Positions 5,919 through 14,023 of a stretch of DNA of 64,000 nt are shown here, one piece after another (the first letter of the stretch is position 1; every line of letters starts with the position of its first letter). Source of the DNA: an uncultured Hyphomicrobiales bacterium (lineage in GTDB: Bacteria > Pseudomonadota > Alphaproteobacteria > Rhizobiales > Xanthobacteraceae); contig CAYWNY010000003.1 of NCBI GenBank assembly GCA_964459765.1, forward strand, positions 12,861-76,860. Reading direction: 5' to 3'. The notes beneath the pieces are model-generated. The model was not told where the DNA came from. It saw only the letters and a list, made by a program, of their open reading frames with translations, and did not search any database. A program made the translations under genes and the position numbers.

Positions 5919-6604
5919 GCGCCGCCCCACTCCGGGTGTTGGTGGTCGATGACGAGCCGCCGATCCGCAAGCTCCTGCGCATGGGCCTGAGCGCACAGGG
6001 CTACCAAACGCTTGAAGCGCCAAACGGCAAGACTGCACTCGAATTGCTCGAGCAGGCCCCCGACTTGGTCATTCTCGACCTCGGCCTGCCCGACGTAAAA
6101 GGCCTCGAACTGTTGCGCACCATTCGCGCGCGCAACGAGAGCGTTCCGATCGTGGTGTTGTCGAGCCGCGGCGACGAAGCCGGCAAGGTTGCCGCGCTCG
6201 ACCTCGGCGCCGACGACTACGTCACCAAGCCGTTCGGGATGGAGGAGCTGCTGGCGCGCATGCGGGCGGCCCTTCGGCATCAGTTACAGATTCACGGCGA
6301 GCGACCAGTTTTTAAGGTCGGCGACCTCTCGGTCGATCTGGTCCGCCGTCTGGTCAAAGTCGGCGACAAGGAGGTCAAACTGTCGCCAAAGGAATACGAT
6401 CTGCTGCGCGTCCTGGTGCAGCACGCCGGCAAGGTCCTAACCCACAAATTTTTGCTCGGCGAATTGTGGGACGACCTGACGGACGCCCAGTATCTTCGCG
6501 TCTATGTGCGCCAGCTGCGGCAAAAGATCGAAGCCGACCCGGAGCGGCCACAATTTATCCTCACTGAAACCGGGATCGGCTACCGGCTGCGCGCACCGGA
6601 TTAG
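5915..6604 (+). CDS. kdpE: OmpR-family response regulator KdpE
   Basis: 229 aa with a receiver domain (VVDDE...DLGLPD) and a winged-helix C-terminus (GIGYRL). Its start overlaps the kdpD stop by 4 nt (ATGA). Confidence 0.95.
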   Translation: MSAAPLRVLVVDDEPPIRKLLRMGLSAQGYQTLEAPNGKTALELLEQAPDLVILDLGLPDVKGLELLRTIRARNESVPIVVLSSRGDEAGKVAALDLGADDYVTKPFGMEELLARMRAALRHQLQIHGERPVFKVGDLSVDLVRRLVKVGDKEVKLSPKEYDLLRVLVQHAGKVLTHKFLLGELWDDLTDAQYLRVYVRQLRQKIEADPERPQFILTETGIGYRLRAPD

Positions 6605-6707
6605 CGCATGATCCGGAAAAGTGGACACCGGTTTTCCGAAAAAGATCATGCGCCAGCGTAGAATCTAGACCACGATCCGATTCAACCTGATCGGATCGTG
6701 GTCTAGA
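6604..6707. repeat. Composite intergenic palindromic element, copy 1 (hairpin A 6604-6653, hairpin B 6664-6707)
   Basis: Hairpin A is GCGCATGATCCGGAAAAGTGGACACCGGTTTTCCGAAAAAGATCATGCGC. Hairpin B is a perfect inverted repeat, TCTAGACCACGATCCGAT-TCAACC-TGATCGGATCGTGGTCTAGA. A near-identical two-part unit recurs at 10029-10131 and a degenerate one at about 15527-15598. Confidence 0.85.
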
Positions 6708-6792
6708 TAGCGCGCAGCGCGATGGCAAGTCGTGCAAATGTGCGGTGCATCGTTTATTGATGCCACCGACAGACTGTCGGGAGGATTACACC

Positions 6793-7428
6793 ATGGCCGA
6801 AGAGCTCGTTTTCTACACCAACCCACGCTCACGCGGACGCATCGTGCGCTGGATGCTAGAAGAGGTCGGGCAGCCGTACCGCACCGAAGTACTCGACTAC
6901 GGCACGACCATGAAGGCGCCGGCGTATCTCGCGATCAACCCCATGGGCAAGGTGCCGGCGCTGCGCCACGGCGAAGCAGTAGTCACCGAGGCCGCGGCCA
7001 TCTGCGCCTACCTCGCCGACGCGTTTCCGCAAGCCGGATTGGCGCCGCCGCCCGGCGATCGTCTGCGCGCTCCCTATTATCGCTGGCTGTTTTTCGCCGC
7101 GGGCCCGCTCGAGGCGTCGGTCACCAACAAGAAATTTGGCTTCGTGGTGCCGCCGGAACGCCAGGCGTCGGTCGGCTATGGGTCTTATGACCTGGCGACA
7201 AAAACGCTCGAAGACGCCGTGTCGGCGGGCGACTATCTCGTGGGCGGGAAATTTAGCGCCGCCGACGTCTATATCGGCTCGCATATCGGCTTTGGCCTGA
7301 TGTTCGGCACGCTCGAAAAGAAACCGGCATTCGAGCGTTATCTGCAGCGACTGACGGCGCGTCCAGCCTATCAGCGCGCCAACGAACTCGACAATGCACT
7401 GATGCCGCCGCAGAAGGCGGCAAGCTGA
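6793..7428 (+). CDS. Glutathione S-transferase family protein
   Basis: The ATG at 6793 is preceded by GGGAGGA. The N-terminal thioredoxin-like fold (FYTNPRSRGRIVRWMLEE...MGKVPAL) and C-terminal GST helices fit the family. The product is 211 aa. Confidence 0.85.
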   Translation: MAEELVFYTNPRSRGRIVRWMLEEVGQPYRTEVLDYGTTMKAPAYLAINPMGKVPALRHGEAVVTEAAAICAYLADAFPQAGLAPPPGDRLRAPYYRWLFFAAGPLEASVTNKKFGFVVPPERQASVGYGSYDLATKTLEDAVSAGDYLVGGKFSAADVYIGSHIGFGLMFGTLEKKPAFERYLQRLTARPAYQRANELDNALMPPQKAAS

Positions 7429-7429
7429 T

Positions 7430-8302
7430 TTAAGTTTTTGGGAGCCGCATCAGCGGCTCCCCGACCCGGATATTGACGCCCTCGCGCACATTCTCGGTGA
7501 GCTCAAAGCCTTCCGGCGCAAAGACGATGATGGTCGAGCCATGCTCGAACCAGCCGAGTTCGTCGCCTTTGCGGAAGTCGGCGTCGCACGGCAGCGCATT
7601 GGGCCCGCGATGCGCAAGATTGAGCGGCGCGTCGAGGCAATGCAGGCGAATGCTGGCGACCAGAATGGCGGCGACCGCAACCAAAGTCACCGGTGCGCCG
7701 TTCGTGGCGAGCGTTGTGCGCACCATAGCGCGCTCGTTCTTGCAAAACAGGCGCTCGACGCGCTTGAGCGCGATCGGGTTGACGTTCCACGTATCGCCGG
7801 AAATGTAGATCACTTCCTCTACCCGGCAGTCGTGCGGCGCGTGGAAGCGATGATACATGCTCGACGTGAGGCGGAGCGTCACATAGCGGCCGTTGCGGTG
7901 CGCCTCGACCAGCGCGCGGCCGTGGAGCAAGTCCTCGAGTATGTAGGGAAAGCCCTTGGCCTGAAAAAGCTCGGTGCCGGCGATCGCGCCGCAGGCCCCG
8001 ACAATGGCATCGCAGGGACTGACCAGGATGTCGGTCCGGGCGTCGATCGGCCGCGCGCCGTCTTTGAGTTCGCGCGTGAAGCAATCGTGCACGCTGCGGA
8101 ACCGTGTCTTCTTGGCCTCCCCAAGATCGAGGTCGGAAAACAGCCGCCAAACGGCGATCGAAGCGTCGCGGATAAGCGGTTGCTCGATTTTGCTGAACCA
8201 GCCGACGAACTGCGTGGCCAACCGCCGCGGAATGCGGTTGGTCAGGAGGAAGTTGATATCCTCCTGCGCCAACAACCGCATAAGTCCGGACCGCACTGTC
8301 AT
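7430..8302 (-). CDS. Phosphatidylserine decarboxylase family protein (long, Psd/Asd-like proenzyme)
   Basis: It has the self-cleavage motif context LGWFEHGSTIIVF and other Psd-family blocks (FHAPHDCRV). The start is chosen at ATG 8302 (MTVRSGLMRLL...), while the track ORF extends to 8350. It is divergent from the aminotransferase gene. Confidence 0.8.
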   Translation of the reverse strand: MTVRSGLMRLLAQEDINFLLTNRIPRRLATQFVGWFSKIEQPLIRDASIAVWRLFSDLDLGEAKKTRFRSVHDCFTRELKDGARPIDARTDILVSPCDAIVGACGAIAGTELFQAKGFPYILEDLLHGRALVEAHRNGRYVTLRLTSSMYHRFHAPHDCRVEEVIYISGDTWNVNPIALKRVERLFCKNERAMVRTTLATNGAPVTLVAVAAILVASIRLHCLDAPLNLAHRGPNALPCDADFRKGDELGWFEHGSTIIVFAPEGFELTENVREGVNIRVGEPLMRLPKT

Positions 8303-8337
8303 GGCGCTGTCAAATCCGGCGCGTAGACCGCGATTCG

Positions 8338-10131
8338 ATGGCACTGGCAACGACTTGGGCTACTGCTACACTGGCGCTCTACGGGGTTGGCGGCGCTGCG
8401 CTCGCGACCTCGTTTTATAAGCTGCGGCGCCGCCTCAATCTGTCGCAGGCCAAACACAAGTCGCTCTCCGGCCATTCGCGAATCGCCCGGCGGTTGGCCG
8501 CGCTGGTGCCGTTTTACGAATACGACGAAGCGCACTTCTTTTGCGCCGACGGTGCGCCCGAAGCAGTGTTGCAACGCCGCCGCACCGGCTTTGCGAGGCT
8601 CTCCACGCTTTATAAAACGCGCCTCGCCGAGACCGTCGCCCGCACCGCCGAGGCCGCCGAGAGCATTTCCGACCTGCAATTCACCAGCGCCTATCGCGTG
8701 CCATTCCAGTTCAACCGTTATGTGCGCCAGCACCTGCCGCCGGCGAGCTTCATGCAATCGAGCTCGGGCGTCATGGTAACCGACCTTGACGGCAATCACT
8801 TCTACGACGTCAGCGGCTCCTACGGCGTCAACGTGCTCGGCTACGACTTCTATAAGGGCGCCATCGAGCGCGGCGCTGCGCGGGTGCGCGAACTCGGCCC
8901 GGTGCTCGGCCCCTATCATCCGCTGATTATCGAGAATGTGAATATTTTGAAGGCGATTTCCGGGCTCGATGAAGTGTCCTTCCACATGTCGGGAACGGAA
9001 GCGGTGATGCAGGCGGTGCGGCTCGCGCGCTATCACACACGCCGCTCGCACCTGGTGCGGTTCTGCGGCGCCTATCACGGCTGGTGGGGCGACGTGCAGC
9101 CGGGCATCGGCAATCCGGTTCCGGCCCACGAAACCTATACGCTGGCCGACATGTCCGAGGCTTCGCTGCACGTCATCCGCACCCGAAGCGACATTGCCTG
9201 TGTCCTGATCAACCCGCTGCAGGCGCTGCATCCGAACGCCTCCGCCGCGAGCGACTCGGCGCTCCTCGACAGCGGGCGGCGCGCCCATTTCGACAAGGAC
9301 GCCTACGCCGCCTGGCTCAAGGCGCTGCGCGAGGTCTGCACCGAGCGCAATATCGTCCTGATCTTCGACGAAGTGTTCGTCGGCTTCCGGTTGGCGATCG
9401 GCGGCGCGCAGGAATATTTCGACGTGCGTGCCGACCTTGTGACCTACGGCAAGACCCTGGGCGGCGGACTTCCGATCGGCGTCGTCTGCGGCAAAAGCCA
9501 TTTGATGAAGCGCTATCGCGACGATCGGCCGGCCGATATATGCTTTGCCCGCGGCACCTTCAATTCCCACCCCTACGTCATGGCGGCGATGAATGAATTC
9601 TTGCGCCACCTGCAGACCCCGCGCGGCCGCGCCGTCTACGACGACCTCGACCGGACCTGGGACGAGCGGTCGCGGCGGCTCAATGAACGGCTCGGCGCGG
9701 AAGGATTGCCGGTGCACGTCGCCAATATCTCCTCGATCTGGACCGTGTGCTACACGCGGCCGTCGCGCTACAATTGGATGTTCCAATATTACCTCCGCGC
9801 GGAAGGGCTGGCGTTGAGCTGGGTCGGCACCGGACGGCTGATTTTCAGTCTCGACTATACCGAAGCCGATTTCGCGGCGGTGGCCGATCGCTTCGTCAGA
9901 GCCGCGCAAGCGATGCAAGGCGATGGCTGGTGGTGGAATAGTCCGACCCTGACCAACAAATCGATCAAGCGGGCGATCCTCAAAGAGACGATCGCCCGAC
10001 GCCTGTTTTCCCAAAGCTCGCAAACCTACCGCATGATCCGGAAAAGTGGATACCGATTTTCCGAAATAGATCATGCGCCAGCGAAGGATCCGGACCATGA
10101 TCCGATTCAACCAAATCGGATCATGATCTAG
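8338..10131 (+). CDS. Class-III (GSA-aminomutase-like) PLP-dependent aminotransferase with a ~130-aa N-terminal membrane-anchored extension
   Basis: 597 aa. It has an N-terminal TM helix (TATLALYGVGGAALATSFY) and a class-III aminotransferase core (SGTEAVMQAVRLAR, FDEVFVGFR, TYGKTLGGGLP with the PLP lysine context). The last ~35 codons read through repeat copy 2. Confidence 0.8.
   Translation: MALATTWATATLALYGVGGAALATSFYKLRRRLNLSQAKHKSLSGHSRIARRLAALVPFYEYDEAHFFCADGAPEAVLQRRRTGFARLSTLYKTRLAETVARTAEAAESISDLQFTSAYRVPFQFNRYVRQHLPPASFMQSSSGVMVTDLDGNHFYDVSGSYGVNVLGYDFYKGAIERGAARVRELGPVLGPYHPLIIENVNILKAISGLDEVSFHMSGTEAVMQAVRLARYHTRRSHLVRFCGAYHGWWGDVQPGIGNPVPAHETYTLADMSEASLHVIRTRSDIACVLINPLQALHPNASAASDSALLDSGRRAHFDKDAYAAWLKALREVCTERNIVLIFDEVFVGFRLAIGGAQEYFDVRADLVTYGKTLGGGLPIGVVCGKSHLMKRYRDDRPADICFARGTFNSHPYVMAAMNEFLRHLQTPRGRAVYDDLDRTWDERSRRLNERLGAEGLPVHVANISSIWTVCYTRPSRYNWMFQYYLRAEGLALSWVGTGRLIFSLDYTEADFAAVADRFVRAAQAMQGDGWWWNSPTLTNKSIKRAILKETIARRLFSQSSQTYRMIRKSGYRFSEIDHAPAKDPDHDPIQPNRIMI
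10029..10131. repeat. Composite palindromic element, copy 2 (hairpin A 10029-10078, hairpin B about 10091-10131)
   Basis: CGCATGATCCGGAAAAGTGGATACCGATTTTCCGAAATAGATCATGCGC is followed by ...ATCATGATCCGATTCAACCAAATCGGATCATGAT. It is homologous to copy 1 and forms the 3' end, including the stop, of the aminotransferase ORF. Confidence 0.85.
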
Positions 10132-10182
10132 CGCCGTCACGGCAACGAATAAGCCTGCGCGCCCTGGCAAAGACCGTCGGCG

Positions 10183-10866
10183 CTAAGTCAGCCGCGGCAG
10201 CTCTTCCGGCTCGACGTCTTCCTCGTCTTCCCACTCCGCGACTTCGCGGCCGATGCCGGGATCGATCAATTCGCCGCGCAAAAGCGCCAGCGGCGCCTTG
10301 TGGTAGAGCTTGATGTCGTTGAACGGGTCGGTGAGGATTTTGGTGGCCCACACCAGGCCGGTCTGCACGTCTTTGATGAAGAACAAATGCACGGTGCGGA
10401 ACAGCACGCCGCCAATGCCGATGACGAGCCACATTTCCGCTACCTGGCGGATGAAGTCCATCTTGCCGGCGGCCGGCGTGAAGATGCCCAACAGGGTCGG
10501 ATCGAAAAAGAGCACTGCAGGCGACAGCGCCCAGATCGTCATCAACACCACCTTGCGGCGGAGATTGTAGCCGACCTTGATCTCTTCCTTGTGTTCGTGG
10601 GTGGCGTGATTGACGGTGTCGTAGTCTTTAGGCTCGAAGAAAAAGTGACCGCATTGGCGCGTGGTCATCGACACCAGCCAGCCGGCCAAAGCGGAGATGG
10701 CCGGATCCTTGAAGATCATCAGGTAGGAGAACAAAAAGCTGACCGCGCTGACGAAGTGCAGCGACTGATTGATCCGGCTGTGATGATAATAACGATGATC
10801 GTCCCAGCGTTGAGTACGCAAAGCCAAGAGAAAGCCGCCCATCTGTGTCCCCCGTGCTCCGGTCAT
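10183..10866 (-). CDS. Mpo1-like / DUF962-like integral membrane protein
   Basis: 227-aa polytopic ORF. It carries YYHHSRINQSLHFVS and QCGHFFFEPKDYD motifs, which resemble the His-rich signature of the Mpo1/DUF962 family. An alternative ATG at 10842 has a better GGGGGA RBS. Confidence 0.6.
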   Translation of the reverse strand: MTGARGTQMGGFLLALRTQRWDDHRYYHHSRINQSLHFVSAVSFLFSYLMIFKDPAISALAGWLVSMTTRQCGHFFFEPKDYDTVNHATHEHKEEIKVGYNLRRKVVLMTIWALSPAVLFFDPTLLGIFTPAAGKMDFIRQVAEMWLVIGIGGVLFRTVHLFFIKDVQTGLVWATKILTDPFNDIKLYHKAPLALLRGELIDPGIGREVAEWEDEEDVEPEELPRLT

Positions 10867-10948
10867 CGTTTTTAGATATGGCGATTCGGTGAATCCCCGA
10901 TGACAGACGGGCGACCGCCGTCTGAAAAGAATCGCCGGCGAGCCTTTG

Positions 10949-11662
10949 TCAGGATGCGGCGCGGGCAGCGGGGAAGTCGGGTTCCGACTTACCCGACGGT
11001 GCCACCTGTGCGGCCTCCTTGGCGAAGCGAATCAGCGAAAAATGCCCGAGCGGCGGCATCGATCGGCGCTCGATCAGGCGGATGCCGGAGGTGCGCGCCA
11101 CCCATTTTGCATAGCGCTCGAAGGAGAACTCGGTGCGCCAACCGAGCTTGCGCACGGCCGGCTGGAACCAATGCTCGAGGGTGCGCCGCAGCCCCGCTTC
11201 CGCGCCGACGCGGGTGACGACAATGATCTCACCGCCGGGTTTGAGAACCCGGGCGAATTCGTCGAGCACAGCTTCCGGATTTGGCGCGGTACTGACCACG
11301 TATTGCGCCACCACGACATCGAACGAATTGTCGGGGAAGGTGAGACGTTCGGCGTCCATCACGTAAAGCCCTTCGACATTGCTCAGGTCGAACTCGGTCA
11401 CGCGTTCGTGGGCCTTGCGCAGCATCTGCTCGGAAATGTCGATGCCGGTCAGCCGGCAATTCTTCGAATAATGCGGCAAGGCAATGCCGGTGCCGACGCC
11501 GACTTCGAGGATGCGTCCGCCGATCTTTTCAGCTGCCTCGATCGCGGCATCGCGGCCGCGCTCGAACACCGCACCGAACACAATGTCGTAGACCGGCGCC
11601 CAGCGGTCGTAAGCCTTGGTGACGGTCTGTTTATCGAGGTCTGCATTCGCGAGGCTGGTCAT
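10949..11662 (-). CDS. Class I SAM-dependent methyltransferase (rhizobial PmtA-like phospholipid N-methyltransferase candidate)
   Basis: 237 aa with SAM motif I (ILEVGVGTGI), a post-I acidic residue (GIDIS) and motif II (FDVVVAQYV). Its size and context among lipid genes resemble Sinorhizobium-type PmtA. Confidence 0.7.
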   Translation of the reverse strand: MTSLANADLDKQTVTKAYDRWAPVYDIVFGAVFERGRDAAIEAAEKIGGRILEVGVGTGIALPHYSKNCRLTGIDISEQMLRKAHERVTEFDLSNVEGLYVMDAERLTFPDNSFDVVVAQYVVSTAPNPEAVLDEFARVLKPGGEIIVVTRVGAEAGLRRTLEHWFQPAVRKLGWRTEFSFERYAKWVARTSGIRLIERRSMPPLGHFSLIRFAKEAAQVAPSGKSEPDFPAARAAS

Positions 11663-11726
11663 AGCTCATCCTTTAGTTGCCACCCTTAAACTCCAAACAC
11701 CGAAACTTAGGAGTAAAGTCGATTCC

Positions 11727-12782
11727 TCAGCCCGGTGCCGTTTCGGTAACGGTCATTGCCGTTTCGATTTCGCGCGCGCCGCCGGTCGCCACCTTGCGCA
11801 CATGGCCGATGAACTGCCGCGCGCTGTTTTCCCAGGAATAGTCGAGCGCGAATTCACGGCAGGCCTCTCGAGACAGCTTGAGCGCCTCAAGACAGGCGCG
11901 GCGCAGGTCTTCGTCCAAGAAGCCGACCGGCCGGTCGCCGACCACGTCTTTCGGACCGGTGACGGGAAAAGCAGCGACCGGCACGCCGCTCGCCAACGCC
12001 TCGAGCTGCACGATGCCGAAGGTATCGGTCCGGCTGGGGAAGACGAATACATCCGCAGCAGCCAAATGCGCAGCCAGCGTGCCGTTCTCCAGCGGTCCGA
12101 GAAATTTCGCGTCGGGAAAGTCGCGGCGAAGCTTCGCTTCTTGAGGACCCGTGCCAACCACGACCTTGGTGCCGGGAAGATCGAGCGACAAGAACGCTTC
12201 CAGATTCTTCTCCACGGCGACGCGACCGACGGTCATGAAGATCGGCCGCGGCAAGCCGATATCGATGGCGCGATCGGGGCGGAACAGGTCGATGTCGACG
12301 CCGCGCGTCCACATGCCCAGATGGCCGAAGCCGCGTTCGGTCAGCTCGTTGGTCAGTGAGGGCGTTGCCACCATGGTGACGGTGGCGCCGGCGTGAAACC
12401 AGCGCAGTACCGCATAGATCCAGCTCTCCGGCAGCGGCGAGCGCGCCGAAATGTATTCGGGAAAGCGCGTGGTGTAGCTCGTGGTGAACGGTCGGCCGTT
12501 GCGGCGGCAGTAGGCGCGCACGGCAAACCCGATCGGCCCCTCGGTCGCCAGATGAATAGCATCCGGGTTGGCCGCCTCGATGCGCTCGGCGATTCCCCTT
12601 CGATTGGGGATGGCAAGGCGCAAGCCCGGATAGGTCGGCAGCTGAAAAGACGGAAATCCGTCGGGCGATAGAAACTCAACCGTCACCCCGAGTTTGCTTG
12701 ACGCCCGGGCCAGCGAGCCTAGCGTCCTTACGACCCCATTCACCTGCGGATGCCACGCATCGGTGGCGACAAGAACCTTCAT
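11727..12782 (-). CDS. GT4-family glycosyltransferase (SQD2 / glycosyl-diacylglycerol synthase-like)
   Basis: The sequence MKVLVATDAWHPQVNGVV...FVFPSRTDTFGIVQLEALASGVPV includes the E-x7-E region of GT4 retaining transferases. The ATG is at 12782 (TTG at 12797). Confidence 0.85.
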   Translation of the reverse strand: MKVLVATDAWHPQVNGVVRTLGSLARASSKLGVTVEFLSPDGFPSFQLPTYPGLRLAIPNRRGIAERIEAANPDAIHLATEGPIGFAVRAYCRRNGRPFTTSYTTRFPEYISARSPLPESWIYAVLRWFHAGATVTMVATPSLTNELTERGFGHLGMWTRGVDIDLFRPDRAIDIGLPRPIFMTVGRVAVEKNLEAFLSLDLPGTKVVVGTGPQEAKLRRDFPDAKFLGPLENGTLAAHLAAADVFVFPSRTDTFGIVQLEALASGVPVAAFPVTGPKDVVGDRPVGFLDEDLRRACLEALKLSREACREFALDYSWENSARQFIGHVRKVATGGAREIETAMTVTETAPG

Positions 12783-12931
12783 CGGGTGTGCGGCCAAAGG
12801 CCGCCCCTCGCTAATGTCGAATCGAGTGCGGCAACATTTACCGTTTCATATCTCAATCGTGTGACGGTGACGCGGCAGCGCCGTCCGGATAGCGTCGGCT
12901 CGTAACAATACTGTTACAGTTCGATGAGAGT

Positions 12932-14023
12932 TTGCCGCACGAATCGCGCGAGGACGGCTTTGTTGACGTTCGTTACCTCGCGCCGCACCGGGACGTGACC
13001 AGCAATACCGCGCAAAAGATCGTCTCCAGGCTTGGTCACGGCGCGATAAGTGCTGCGATCAGCCTGGTGTTCCTCGCCGTCGCCGGTTTCATTCTTTATA
13101 AATTGCTGCACGACGCCGACTTCGCCAAAGTCGTAACAGCGATCAAAGCGGAATCGCTGAAGCGGATCGCCCTCGCCAGCGTGTTCGTGGTGGTCGGTTA
13201 CATCACGCTGACGTTCTACGATCTGTTCGCGTTGCGCATCATCGGCGCCAGCAAGGTGCCGTACTCGGTCGCGGCACTGGCGAGCTTCACGAGTTCGACG
13301 ATCGGCCACAGTCTCGGCGCGGCCGTGTTGACGGGCGGACTTATCCGACTGCGCATCTATTCGAGCTGGGGCCTGACCGTGCTCGACGTTGCCAAAATCG
13401 CGTTCGTCACCGGCATGACCTTTTGGCTCGGCAATGCGTTCATGCTCGGCAGCGCCACGGCGTTCCTACCGGCGGCAGCTTCTGCCGTCGATCACCTGCC
13501 GCTATGGATCAACCGGGCATTTGGGCTCGCCGGCTTGGCGGCCATCGGCTGCTATTTGTTATGGCTTGCGCCGCGGCCACGCATGGTCGGCCGCGCCGAC
13601 TGGCAGATCGTGCTGCCCAACCTGCGCTCCACGGTATTGCAGATCGGCATCGGCGCGCTGGATCTGACGTTCATAACGACGGCAATGTACATCTTGCTAC
13701 CGCCCGATCCGCCGCTCGGTTTTGTGATGATGATGGTCCCCTTCCTCGCCGCCACATTTCTCGGCACCATCAGCCATACGCCCGGCGGGCTGGGCGTGAT
13801 CGAAGCGACAATGCTGCTGGGGCTCGGCGAATTCCCGCGCGAAGAGCTGTTGGCGTCGCTGCTGACGTTCCGCGCGGTCTACTTCGTGCTGCCCCTCATT
13901 TTGGCCACGTTGTCGCTGGGTTTGCGGGAACTTCGGCTCCTCGTGCGCCCGGCGACCGAGGATTCCGGGACAAACGCGCGCGAGACCGACCGCCAACTTG
14001 TAAGGCCACCACCCCCACGTTAA
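12932..14023 (+). CDS. Lysylphosphatidylglycerol-synthase transmembrane-domain (UPF0104/MprF flippase-like) protein
   Basis: 363 aa with about 8 TM helices and the C-terminal motif HTPGGLGVIEA typical of UPF0104. The start is uncertain (TTG 12932; possible GTG near 12995). It is divergent from the GT4 gene. Confidence 0.8.
   Translation: MPHESREDGFVDVRYLAPHRDVTSNTAQKIVSRLGHGAISAAISLVFLAVAGFILYKLLHDADFAKVVTAIKAESLKRIALASVFVVVGYITLTFYDLFALRIIGASKVPYSVAALASFTSSTIGHSLGAAVLTGGLIRLRIYSSWGLTVLDVAKIAFVTGMTFWLGNAFMLGSATAFLPAAASAVDHLPLWINRAFGLAGLAAIGCYLLWLAPRPRMVGRADWQIVLPNLRSTVLQIGIGALDLTFITTAMYILLPPDPPLGFVMMMVPFLAATFLGTISHTPGGLGVIEATMLLGLGEFPREELLASLLTFRAVYFVLPLILATLSLGLRELRLLVRPATEDSGTNARETDRQLVRPPPPR

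Follow-up and report, generated by a model that had tools for sequence, protein, structure and literature searches.

We analysed a 64,000 nt stretch of DNA from an uncultured Hyphomicrobiales soil bacterium of the family Xanthobacteraceae (assembly GCA_964459765.1, contig CAYWNY010000003.1, positions 12,861 to 76,860), to which we refer, at its full length, as the window. The segment of interest spans positions 7430 to 14023 (Table 1), where an earlier note, made from the letters alone, had placed six ORFs concerned with membrane-lipid head groups; all six were confirmed by an ORF listing and by hidden Markov model (HMM) scans, and the connection with membrane-lipid head groups is supported. 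Three of the genes, encoding a decarboxylase of the phosphatidylserine decarboxylase type (Psd-like), a class-III pyridoxal phosphate (PLP) aminotransferase and a His-rich Mpo1-like membrane protein, form a conserved trio, and the remaining three encode a family 4 glycosyltransferase (GT4), a methyltransferase and a flippase-like protein. As set out below, the cluster is probably controlled by PhoB and concerned with lipid renovation during phosphate starvation. The flanking genes are kdpDE and a GST gene on one side and tolC on the other, an arrangement common to members of the genus only.

Table 1. Genes, repeats and candidate PhoB-binding sites of the cluster (window coordinates)
Feature	Position	Strand	Basis
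Psd paralogue, 290 aa, long E. coli-type pyruvoyl proenzyme; core trio	7430..8302	-	PF02666, TIGR00163
Pho box CTGTCATggcgCTGTCAa	8296..8313	+	consensus match, 1 mismatch
Class-III PLP aminotransferase with N-terminal helical extension, probable anchor; core trio	8338..10131	+	PF00202
105-nt palindromic repeat, second copy (aminotransferase C-terminal tail and stop codon)	10027..10131	.	88% identity to 6602-6706
Mpo1/DUF962-like His-rich membrane protein, 227 aa; core trio	10183..10866	-	PF06127, sub-threshold
Weak Pho-box-like site, 3 mismatches, upstream of the Mpo1-like gene	10900..10917	-	consensus scan
Rhodobacter/Legionella-type Pmt-like S-adenosylmethionine (SAM) methyltransferase, 237 aa; accessory	10949..11662	-	Methyltransf_11, NF045882
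Probable Agt-type GT4 lipid glycosyltransferase, 356 aa	11727..12797	-	GT4 Pfam domains
Weak Pho-box-like site, 3 mismatches, GT4/flippase divergent spacer	12913..12930	-	consensus scan
Stand-alone MprF-type flippase-like polytopic protein, 363 aa; accessory	12932..14023	+	NF033480, PF03706

The conservation of these genes was followed in a family sample of 201 genomes, in a sample of 401 genomes from across the phylum, and in 100 loci (20 cut out and 80 fetched by protein pattern) whose genes were counted by ORF clustering. The Psd-like and aminotransferase genes occur in the same 40 of the 201 family genomes, belonging to 17 of 62 genera, and the other 161 genomes have neither; the two genes are adjacent and divergent in all 40 but one assembly, where they fall on separate contigs. 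Across the phylum the full-length aminotransferase was found in 28 of the 401 genomes. The aminotransferase is present in all 100 loci, the Mpo1-like gene in 95, the Psd-like gene in 94, the GT4 gene in 79, the methyltransferase in 59 and the flippase-like gene in 28, several of these absences falling at contig ends. The 80 named loci include representatives of Bradyrhizobium, Pseudorhodoplanes, Methylocystis, Acetobacteraceae, Stellaceae, Burkholderiales, Steroidobacteraceae, Polyangia, Holophagales and Dormibacterota, and the trio loci as a whole span the Alpha-, Beta- and Gammaproteobacteria, Polyangia, Holophagales and Dormibacterota. The methyltransferase is an addition found almost only in the Alphaproteobacteria and is absent from most loci outside that class, and the flippase-like gene is confined to a subset of the Xanthobacteraceae.

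Both the synteny and the co-occurrence argue that this neighbourhood is not due to chance, and because the Psd-like, aminotransferase and Mpo1-like genes are each kept in 94 to 100 of the 100 loci, the conserved unit is this trio, usually accompanied by an Agt-type GT4 gene. The suggestion that the Psd-like gene and the aminotransferase gene form a true functional unit is borne out by their shared distribution and by their divergent adjacency across phyla. Their tight pairing also holds, although the ATG codons at 8302 (minus strand) and 8338 (plus strand) are separated by 35 nt and not 36. Whether the six genes make up one pathway or are merely neighbours had been left undecided; the answer seems to lie between the two, with a core pathway represented by the trio, to which the methyltransferase and the flippase-like protein are accessories.

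The Psd-like protein scores well above the cut-offs of both the family HMM (PF02666, E-value 1e-54, 185.6 bits versus 22) and TIGR00163 (157.6 bits versus 111.75), and the predicted self-cleavage motif is present as HGST at residues 254-257, such that the description of a long Psd-type decarboxylase with a GST motif stands. Residues D98, H151, H154 and G255-S256-T257 align with D90, H144, H147 and G253-S254-T255 of E. coli Psd, and the start codon at 8302 is conserved among relatives. The protein thus shares its fold, family, GST self-cleavage site and the equivalents of D90, H144 and H147 with the type I bacterial phosphatidylserine decarboxylase (PSD) of E. coli (PDB 7CNW, 6L06; PMC7952604), but it differs in being extra to a housekeeping copy, in the substitutions of its pocket, in its linkage to an aminotransferase and in its Pho box. 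The housekeeping gene in this genome is a separate short psd beside pssA on contig C22, and a second, housekeeping psd is likewise kept in each of five distant trio carriers. The Psd proteins of the trio clade carry four invariant pocket substitutions (Y137R, D142M, F165W and S166N in E. coli numbering) and retain the catalytic residues; in the E. coli enzyme Tyr137 and Ser166 contact the phosphate, the roles of the head-group pocket residues having been described previously (PMC7952604). An Arg at the phosphate-binding position is also a variant found in 15% of PSDs (PMC7952604). One housekeeping Psd copy likewise has Arg there, and we therefore rejected this residue as a marker of a non-phospholipid substrate.

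The aminotransferase contains a class-III PLP domain (PF00202, 110 bits versus a cut-off of 30.5), and neither the PLP lysine (K372) nor the aspartate bound to the pyridine nitrogen (D344) varies among 33 aligned sequences. It does not behave as a HemL-type glutamate-1-semialdehyde (GSA) aminomutase: the scores against the HemL models TIGR00713 (171.6 bits versus 527.3) and NF000818 (180.3 versus 398) fall far below the equivalog cut-offs, HemL structures match less well than the one discussed below, and in place of a soluble enzyme of about 430 aa there are 563 conserved residues, which include an N-terminal extension of about 110-135 aa. Homologues 555-575 aa long from several classes, the Alpha-, Beta- and Gammaproteobacteria among them, retain this extension residue by residue, in alignments that start at about residue 5-15 and cover residues 5-560, and the extension therefore is not an annotation artefact; D71, R81 and D112 within it are invariant. 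The view that the extension is real and that the enzyme is unlike HemL is upheld in both of its parts. An AlphaFold2 model (mean predicted local distance difference test score, pLDDT, 77.6; predicted template modelling score, pTM, 0.81) confirms the class-III fold and presents residues 2-38 as one long helix, with a confident helical sub-domain at about residues 70-110. The first helix is only moderately hydrophobic in the window protein (Kyte-Doolittle value 1.34) but clearly so in its homologues (1.7-2.3), and a basic cluster, KLRRR, follows directly after the hydrophobic stretch; since the helix is hydrophobic in the homologues and is followed by basic residues, the aminotransferase is likely to be anchored in the membrane by it.

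The closest solved structure to the aminotransferase is the aminotransferase (AMT) domain of MycA, the mycosubtilin synthase (PDB 6KFM, 6KFU), which is the best match both by sequence (6KFM, 167 bits versus 124 for HemL) and by structure (rank 1 in a Foldseek search with the model, template modelling score 0.81 normalised by target). The two have the class-III PLP fold in common but are only about 27-30% identical, and the window protein differs in being free-standing, with a probable N-terminal anchor, a helical extension and no carrier-protein partner; moreover, the invariant Arg (R405) that precedes its GTFN motif is replaced by Ala in MycA. The MycA domain acts on a lipid-like beta-ketoacyl (fatty-acyl) substrate. 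We note that the palindromic repeat of Table 1 supplies the last ~35 codons of the aminotransferase gene, the homologues ending near residue 558-563 without such a tail; the other of the two copies in the window lies after kdpE. Three further homologues have long multi-helix N-terminal regions, namely P0134 (a Euglena mutabilis transcript, 1189 aa), P0130 and P0131, of which the latter two also look eukaryotic, and a Pfam scan of these long homologues gave only a weak GT2 match, below the Pfam cut-off, in P0134.

An HMM check of the Mpo1/DUF962 assignment, proposed in the earlier note, gave a mixed outcome, in that the window protein itself lies below threshold (PF06127, E-value 6e-4, 20.3 bits versus a gathering score of 24), while 22 of the 22 family members tested match PF06127 (best E-value 2.7e-5) and match no other family consistently. 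The family has two invariant motifs, QRWDDHRYYHH..NQ.LH and RQ.GHFFFEP. Yeast Mpo1 is an Fe2+-dependent 2-hydroxy-fatty-acid dioxygenase belonging to PF06127; the bacterial proteins resemble it in being small, polytopic membrane proteins with His-rich motifs and matches to this family, but they differ in scoring at or below the gathering threshold and in being fused or linked to an aminotransferase. Natural aminotransferase-Mpo1 fusions, with the Mpo1-like domain at the C-terminus, are represented by four proteins (P0127, P0162, P0181 and P0188), the cluster of P0127 being named Methylomirabilota.

The GT4 assignment is confirmed by the Pfam domains of the protein. No close paralogue of it was found in its own genome. 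Within the order, 141 of 201 genomes have an orthologue with 44-68% identity, a number well above that of the trio carriers. In seven of eight sampled loci a GT4 orthologue, 55-61% identical over its full length, lies directly beside a gene for a PlcP-type metallophosphoesterase (one of the eight is a second Bradyrhizobium copy), and such plcP-adjacent orthologues are present in genomes without the trio. Judging from these comparisons, the window GT4 is an Agt-type lipid glycosyltransferase, orthologous to the plcP-linked Agt. In 18 of the 100 loci, from both Xanthobacteraceae and Burkholderiales, plcP is found no further than about 8 kb from the trio. The plcP gene of the present genome has a GT21-type pgt as its partner, on contig C52, and the only agt-like gene is the one that sits with the trio. 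Freshwater-type Burkholderiales (L008, 10550-13372; L014, 2344-5025) have the GT4 as the C-terminal part of a protein of 890-940 aa, encoded directly after the aminotransferase gene, whose N-terminal ~570 aa have no Pfam match at E ≤ 0.001. In another locus (L004, 12694-13992), from an AT-rich genome of 1.9 Mb that belongs to another class of the phylum, the GT4 gene beside the trio is followed by a major facilitator superfamily (MFS) transporter gene whose start overlaps the GT4 end.

The methyltransferase has a SAM-binding fold (Methyltransf_11), and the best named model is PmtA of the Rhodobacter/Legionella type (NF045882); with 157.2 bits against a cut-off of 390 it does not reach equivalog level. 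A paralogue with 63% identity lies elsewhere in the genome, after mnmA. A 48%-identical homologue is found divergently beside plcP-agt in two Hyphomicrobiales that lack the trio (L113, 8088-8717; L117, 8246-8902), and because of this the Pmt-like family may itself be part of lipid renovation under phosphate stress, independently of the trio. The flippase-like protein, with its multiple hydrophobic segments, matches MprF (NF033480, 193 bits) over positions 4-304 of 841, and has no aminoacyl-phosphatidylglycerol synthase domain; the UPF0104/MprF-type protein (PF03706) is therefore a stand-alone flippase-like domain and not a bifunctional MprF. A paralogue with 50% identity is encoded immediately upstream of phoR (contig C38, 10705-14449), followed by a Pho box and pstS-pstC, and is thus a second flippase-like gene in a phosphate context.

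When the window was scanned with a Pho box consensus of two CTGTCAT repeats placed 4 nt apart, CTGTCATggcgCTGTCAa at 8296-8313 was the sole match with no more than one mismatch. The box runs over the Psd start codon, and 24 nt separate its end from the aminotransferase ATG. Only four such boxes are present in the whole genome of 4.2 Mb (chance expectation, about 1.3), and the other three are located in the phoR/pstS spacer, in the spacer between the GT21-type pgt and plcP, and at the start of a SulP-like gene. The pgt/plcP box (CTGTCATTTACCTGCCAT, contig C52, position 7467) separates a divergent GT21-type processive glycosyltransferase-like gene and the gene for the PlcP-type metallophosphoesterase (6143-8368), and the SulP-like box (CTGTCATCGTTCTGTCAT, contig C22, position 23104), at the 5' end of a transporter ORF of 730 aa, is the only perfect one in the genome. 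If as many as three mismatches are allowed, the window contains three sites (8296, 10900 and 12913), all in intergenic regions of the cluster.

The box is also found in other trio loci. A site with three or fewer mismatches is present in the Psd/aminotransferase spacer of 36 of 93 loci as compared with 1.5% of control windows; Bradyrhizobium has CTGTCATGAATCTGTCAG at the equivalent position, and the second half-site, which is non-coding, is kept in Burkholderiales and Steroidobacteraceae loci as well. All 29 in-cluster sites with at most two mismatches lie at gene edges or between genes, at a density 3.5 times that of the flanks. A scan of the 35-nt spacer for consensus promoters gave nothing useful. 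These boxes lead us to predict that the cluster belongs to the phosphate-starvation (Pho) regulon.

The enzyme classes of the trio, considered together with Agt, PlcP and the Pho boxes, suggest that the product is an amine-bearing, probably phosphorus-free head group made under phosphate starvation, and on balance we think it probable that this is a PhoB-controlled cluster for lipid renovation; induction by phosphate starvation, the substrate, the order of the steps and the product are what we infer from sequence comparison. PlcP would free diacylglycerol from phospholipids and the Agt-type GT4 would glycosylate it, with the trio acting as a unit on a membrane-bound lipid and either installing or trimming an amine-bearing head group. 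In what would be the most parsimonious order, one carbon is processed three times: the Mpo1-like protein, as a putative iron oxygenase, would oxidise it to a carbonyl, the anchored aminotransferase would aminate the carbonyl, and the pyruvoyl enzyme would turn the alpha-amino-acid head group so formed into an amine by decarboxylation. The Pmt-like methyltransferase of this lineage could then N-methylate the amine, and the MprF-like flippase could move the product to the outer leaflet. Any particular chemistry of the trio is proposed with far less confidence than the renovation role itself, and the route by decarboxylation and transamination to an amino-lipid or amino-sugar that was suggested previously is similarly plausible in outline but unsupported in its specific chemistry. 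A route resembling that of ArnA/ArnB, in which glucuronosyl-diacylglycerol is oxidised at C4, decarboxylated and aminated, was set aside, as the pyruvoyl enzyme needs an alpha-amino acid and not a beta-keto or beta-amino acid. More tentatively, the trio and Agt (with the Pmt-like enzyme in Alphaproteobacteria) may give rise to an undescribed class of phosphorus-free amine- or betaine-headed glycerolipids that replaces phosphatidylethanolamine (PE) and phosphatidylcholine in phosphate-starved soil and freshwater bacteria, by a new membrane chemistry of oxidation, transamination and pyruvoyl decarboxylation.

Several points weigh against a renovation cluster of this kind. A pyruvoyl decarboxylase requires a free alpha-amino acid, which no known Agt product, whether glucosyl (Glc)- or glucuronosyl (GlcA)-diacylglycerol, possesses, and this leaves a gap between what the GT4 makes and what the trio would act on. 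At the phosphate-binding position the Psd-like enzyme has an Arg, and because this variant is shared with 15% of PSDs and with a housekeeping Psd, phosphatidylserine (PS) may still be its substrate; if it were plain PS, no phosphorus would be saved. As the first Pho half-site overlaps the Psd start codon, part of the conservation of the box could be due to coding constraint, and many loci have no good box in the Psd/aminotransferase spacer. The sub-threshold score of the Mpo1-like protein counts on the same side.

The trio could instead dismantle head groups under phosphate stress rather than synthesize them, with Psd converting PS to PE, the aminotransferase converting the PE amine to an aldehyde and the Mpo1-like enzyme oxidising this to an acid or cleaving it, which would rebalance charge or feed a PlcP-type salvage of phosphorus. 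Such a salvage role would suit the Pho boxes and the plcP neighbours, aminotransferases are reversible, and the Psd-like enzyme keeps all its catalytic residues together with a residue capable of binding an anion at the phosphate site. However, PlcP alone removes head groups in a single step, the cluster has no conserved phosphatase or lyase gene across the 100 loci, and the linkage to a biosynthetic GT4, along with the N-methyltransferase and flippase here, suits synthesis better; we regard dismantling as unlikely. It is also quite unlikely that the trio modifies some other membrane-bound molecule, such as lipid A or lipopolysaccharide sugars, ornithine lipid (by N-acyl-ornithine or glutamate-semialdehyde chemistry) or hopanoid side chains. 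The class-III family does include N-acetylornithine aminotransferases, the closest structure acts on a fatty-acyl chain and not on a head group, and ornithine lipids increase under phosphate limitation according to one report (PMC7937720). Yet among the 100 loci the trio has no conserved ols, lpx or hpn neighbours; the recurrent ones are Agt, PlcP and Pgt, with the MFS transporter in one locus. Moreover, an ornithine lipid lacks the free alpha-amino acid on which a pyruvoyl decarboxylase would act. That the genes are simply independent, with a second route from PS through PE to methylated PE (Psd plus Pmt) lying beside an unrelated aminotransferase, GT4 and flippase, we consider very improbable: Psd and Pmt-type enzymes by themselves constitute a textbook route, and the methyltransferase and flippase are restricted to certain lineages, but the Psd-like and aminotransferase genes co-occur perfectly, the order of the trio is conserved across phyla, aminotransferase-Mpo1 fusions exist, and outside the Alphaproteobacteria the aminotransferase and Mpo1-like genes persist where the methyltransferase is mostly absent. 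Renovation of membrane lipids under PhoB control is the reading that we retain.

The replacement of phospholipids by phosphorus-free lipids is a major response to phosphorus scarcity in soil, freshwater and marine bacteria, and it also alters antibiotic susceptibility and interactions with hosts. Three routes are known, leading to glycolipids through PlcP-Agt, to the betaine lipid made by BtaAB, and to ornithine lipid. The trio would be a fourth enzyme set, provided with Pho boxes and found beside agt and plcP, and it is present in about one-fifth of the sampled Xanthobacteraceae, including Bradyrhizobium, as well as in Burkholderiales, Steroidobacteraceae, myxobacteria and other groups. If its product were identified, environmental lipidomics would gain a lipid class, and functions would be assigned to the family of anchored aminotransferases, to the Mpo1/DUF962 proteins of bacteria and to those 'second psd' genes that are now annotated as ordinary phosphatidylserine decarboxylases. 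A search of one full-text literature collection found no paper on the trio, and papers on phosphate limitation in Burkholderia, Desulfovibrio and Methylosinus make no mention of an aminotransferase or decarboxylase.

Among described systems, the betaine lipid pathway to diacylglyceryl-trimethylhomoserine (BtaA/BtaB) and Pmt-type N-methylation have with this cluster a concept in common, namely a route by which phosphate-starved cells obtain a head group that is zwitterionic, N-methylated and free of phosphorus; the enzymes of the cluster are different ones, although a Pmt-like SAM methyltransferase is present. A search of the genome for the BtaA family gave no match, and is uninformative in that the control genomes gave none either. 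The PlcP-Agt system, whose plcP-agt gene arrangement has been described for phosphate-stress lipid renovation (PMC3972451, PMC9239053, PMC13700237), is represented in Sinorhizobium and Agrobacterium (Agt, Atu2297), SAR11, Pseudomonas aeruginosa, Methylosinus and Burkholderia, and is under the Pho-box control that is also predicted for the cluster. The present genome also has a Pho-boxed plcP, but its agt is located with the trio and its plcP with pgt on another contig. The described systems have no decarboxylase, aminotransferase or Mpo1-like gene, and their products, Glc- and GlcA-diacylglycerol, carry no nitrogen. Lipid renovation driven by PhoB is a known phenomenon, and what is new here is the enzyme set of the trio.

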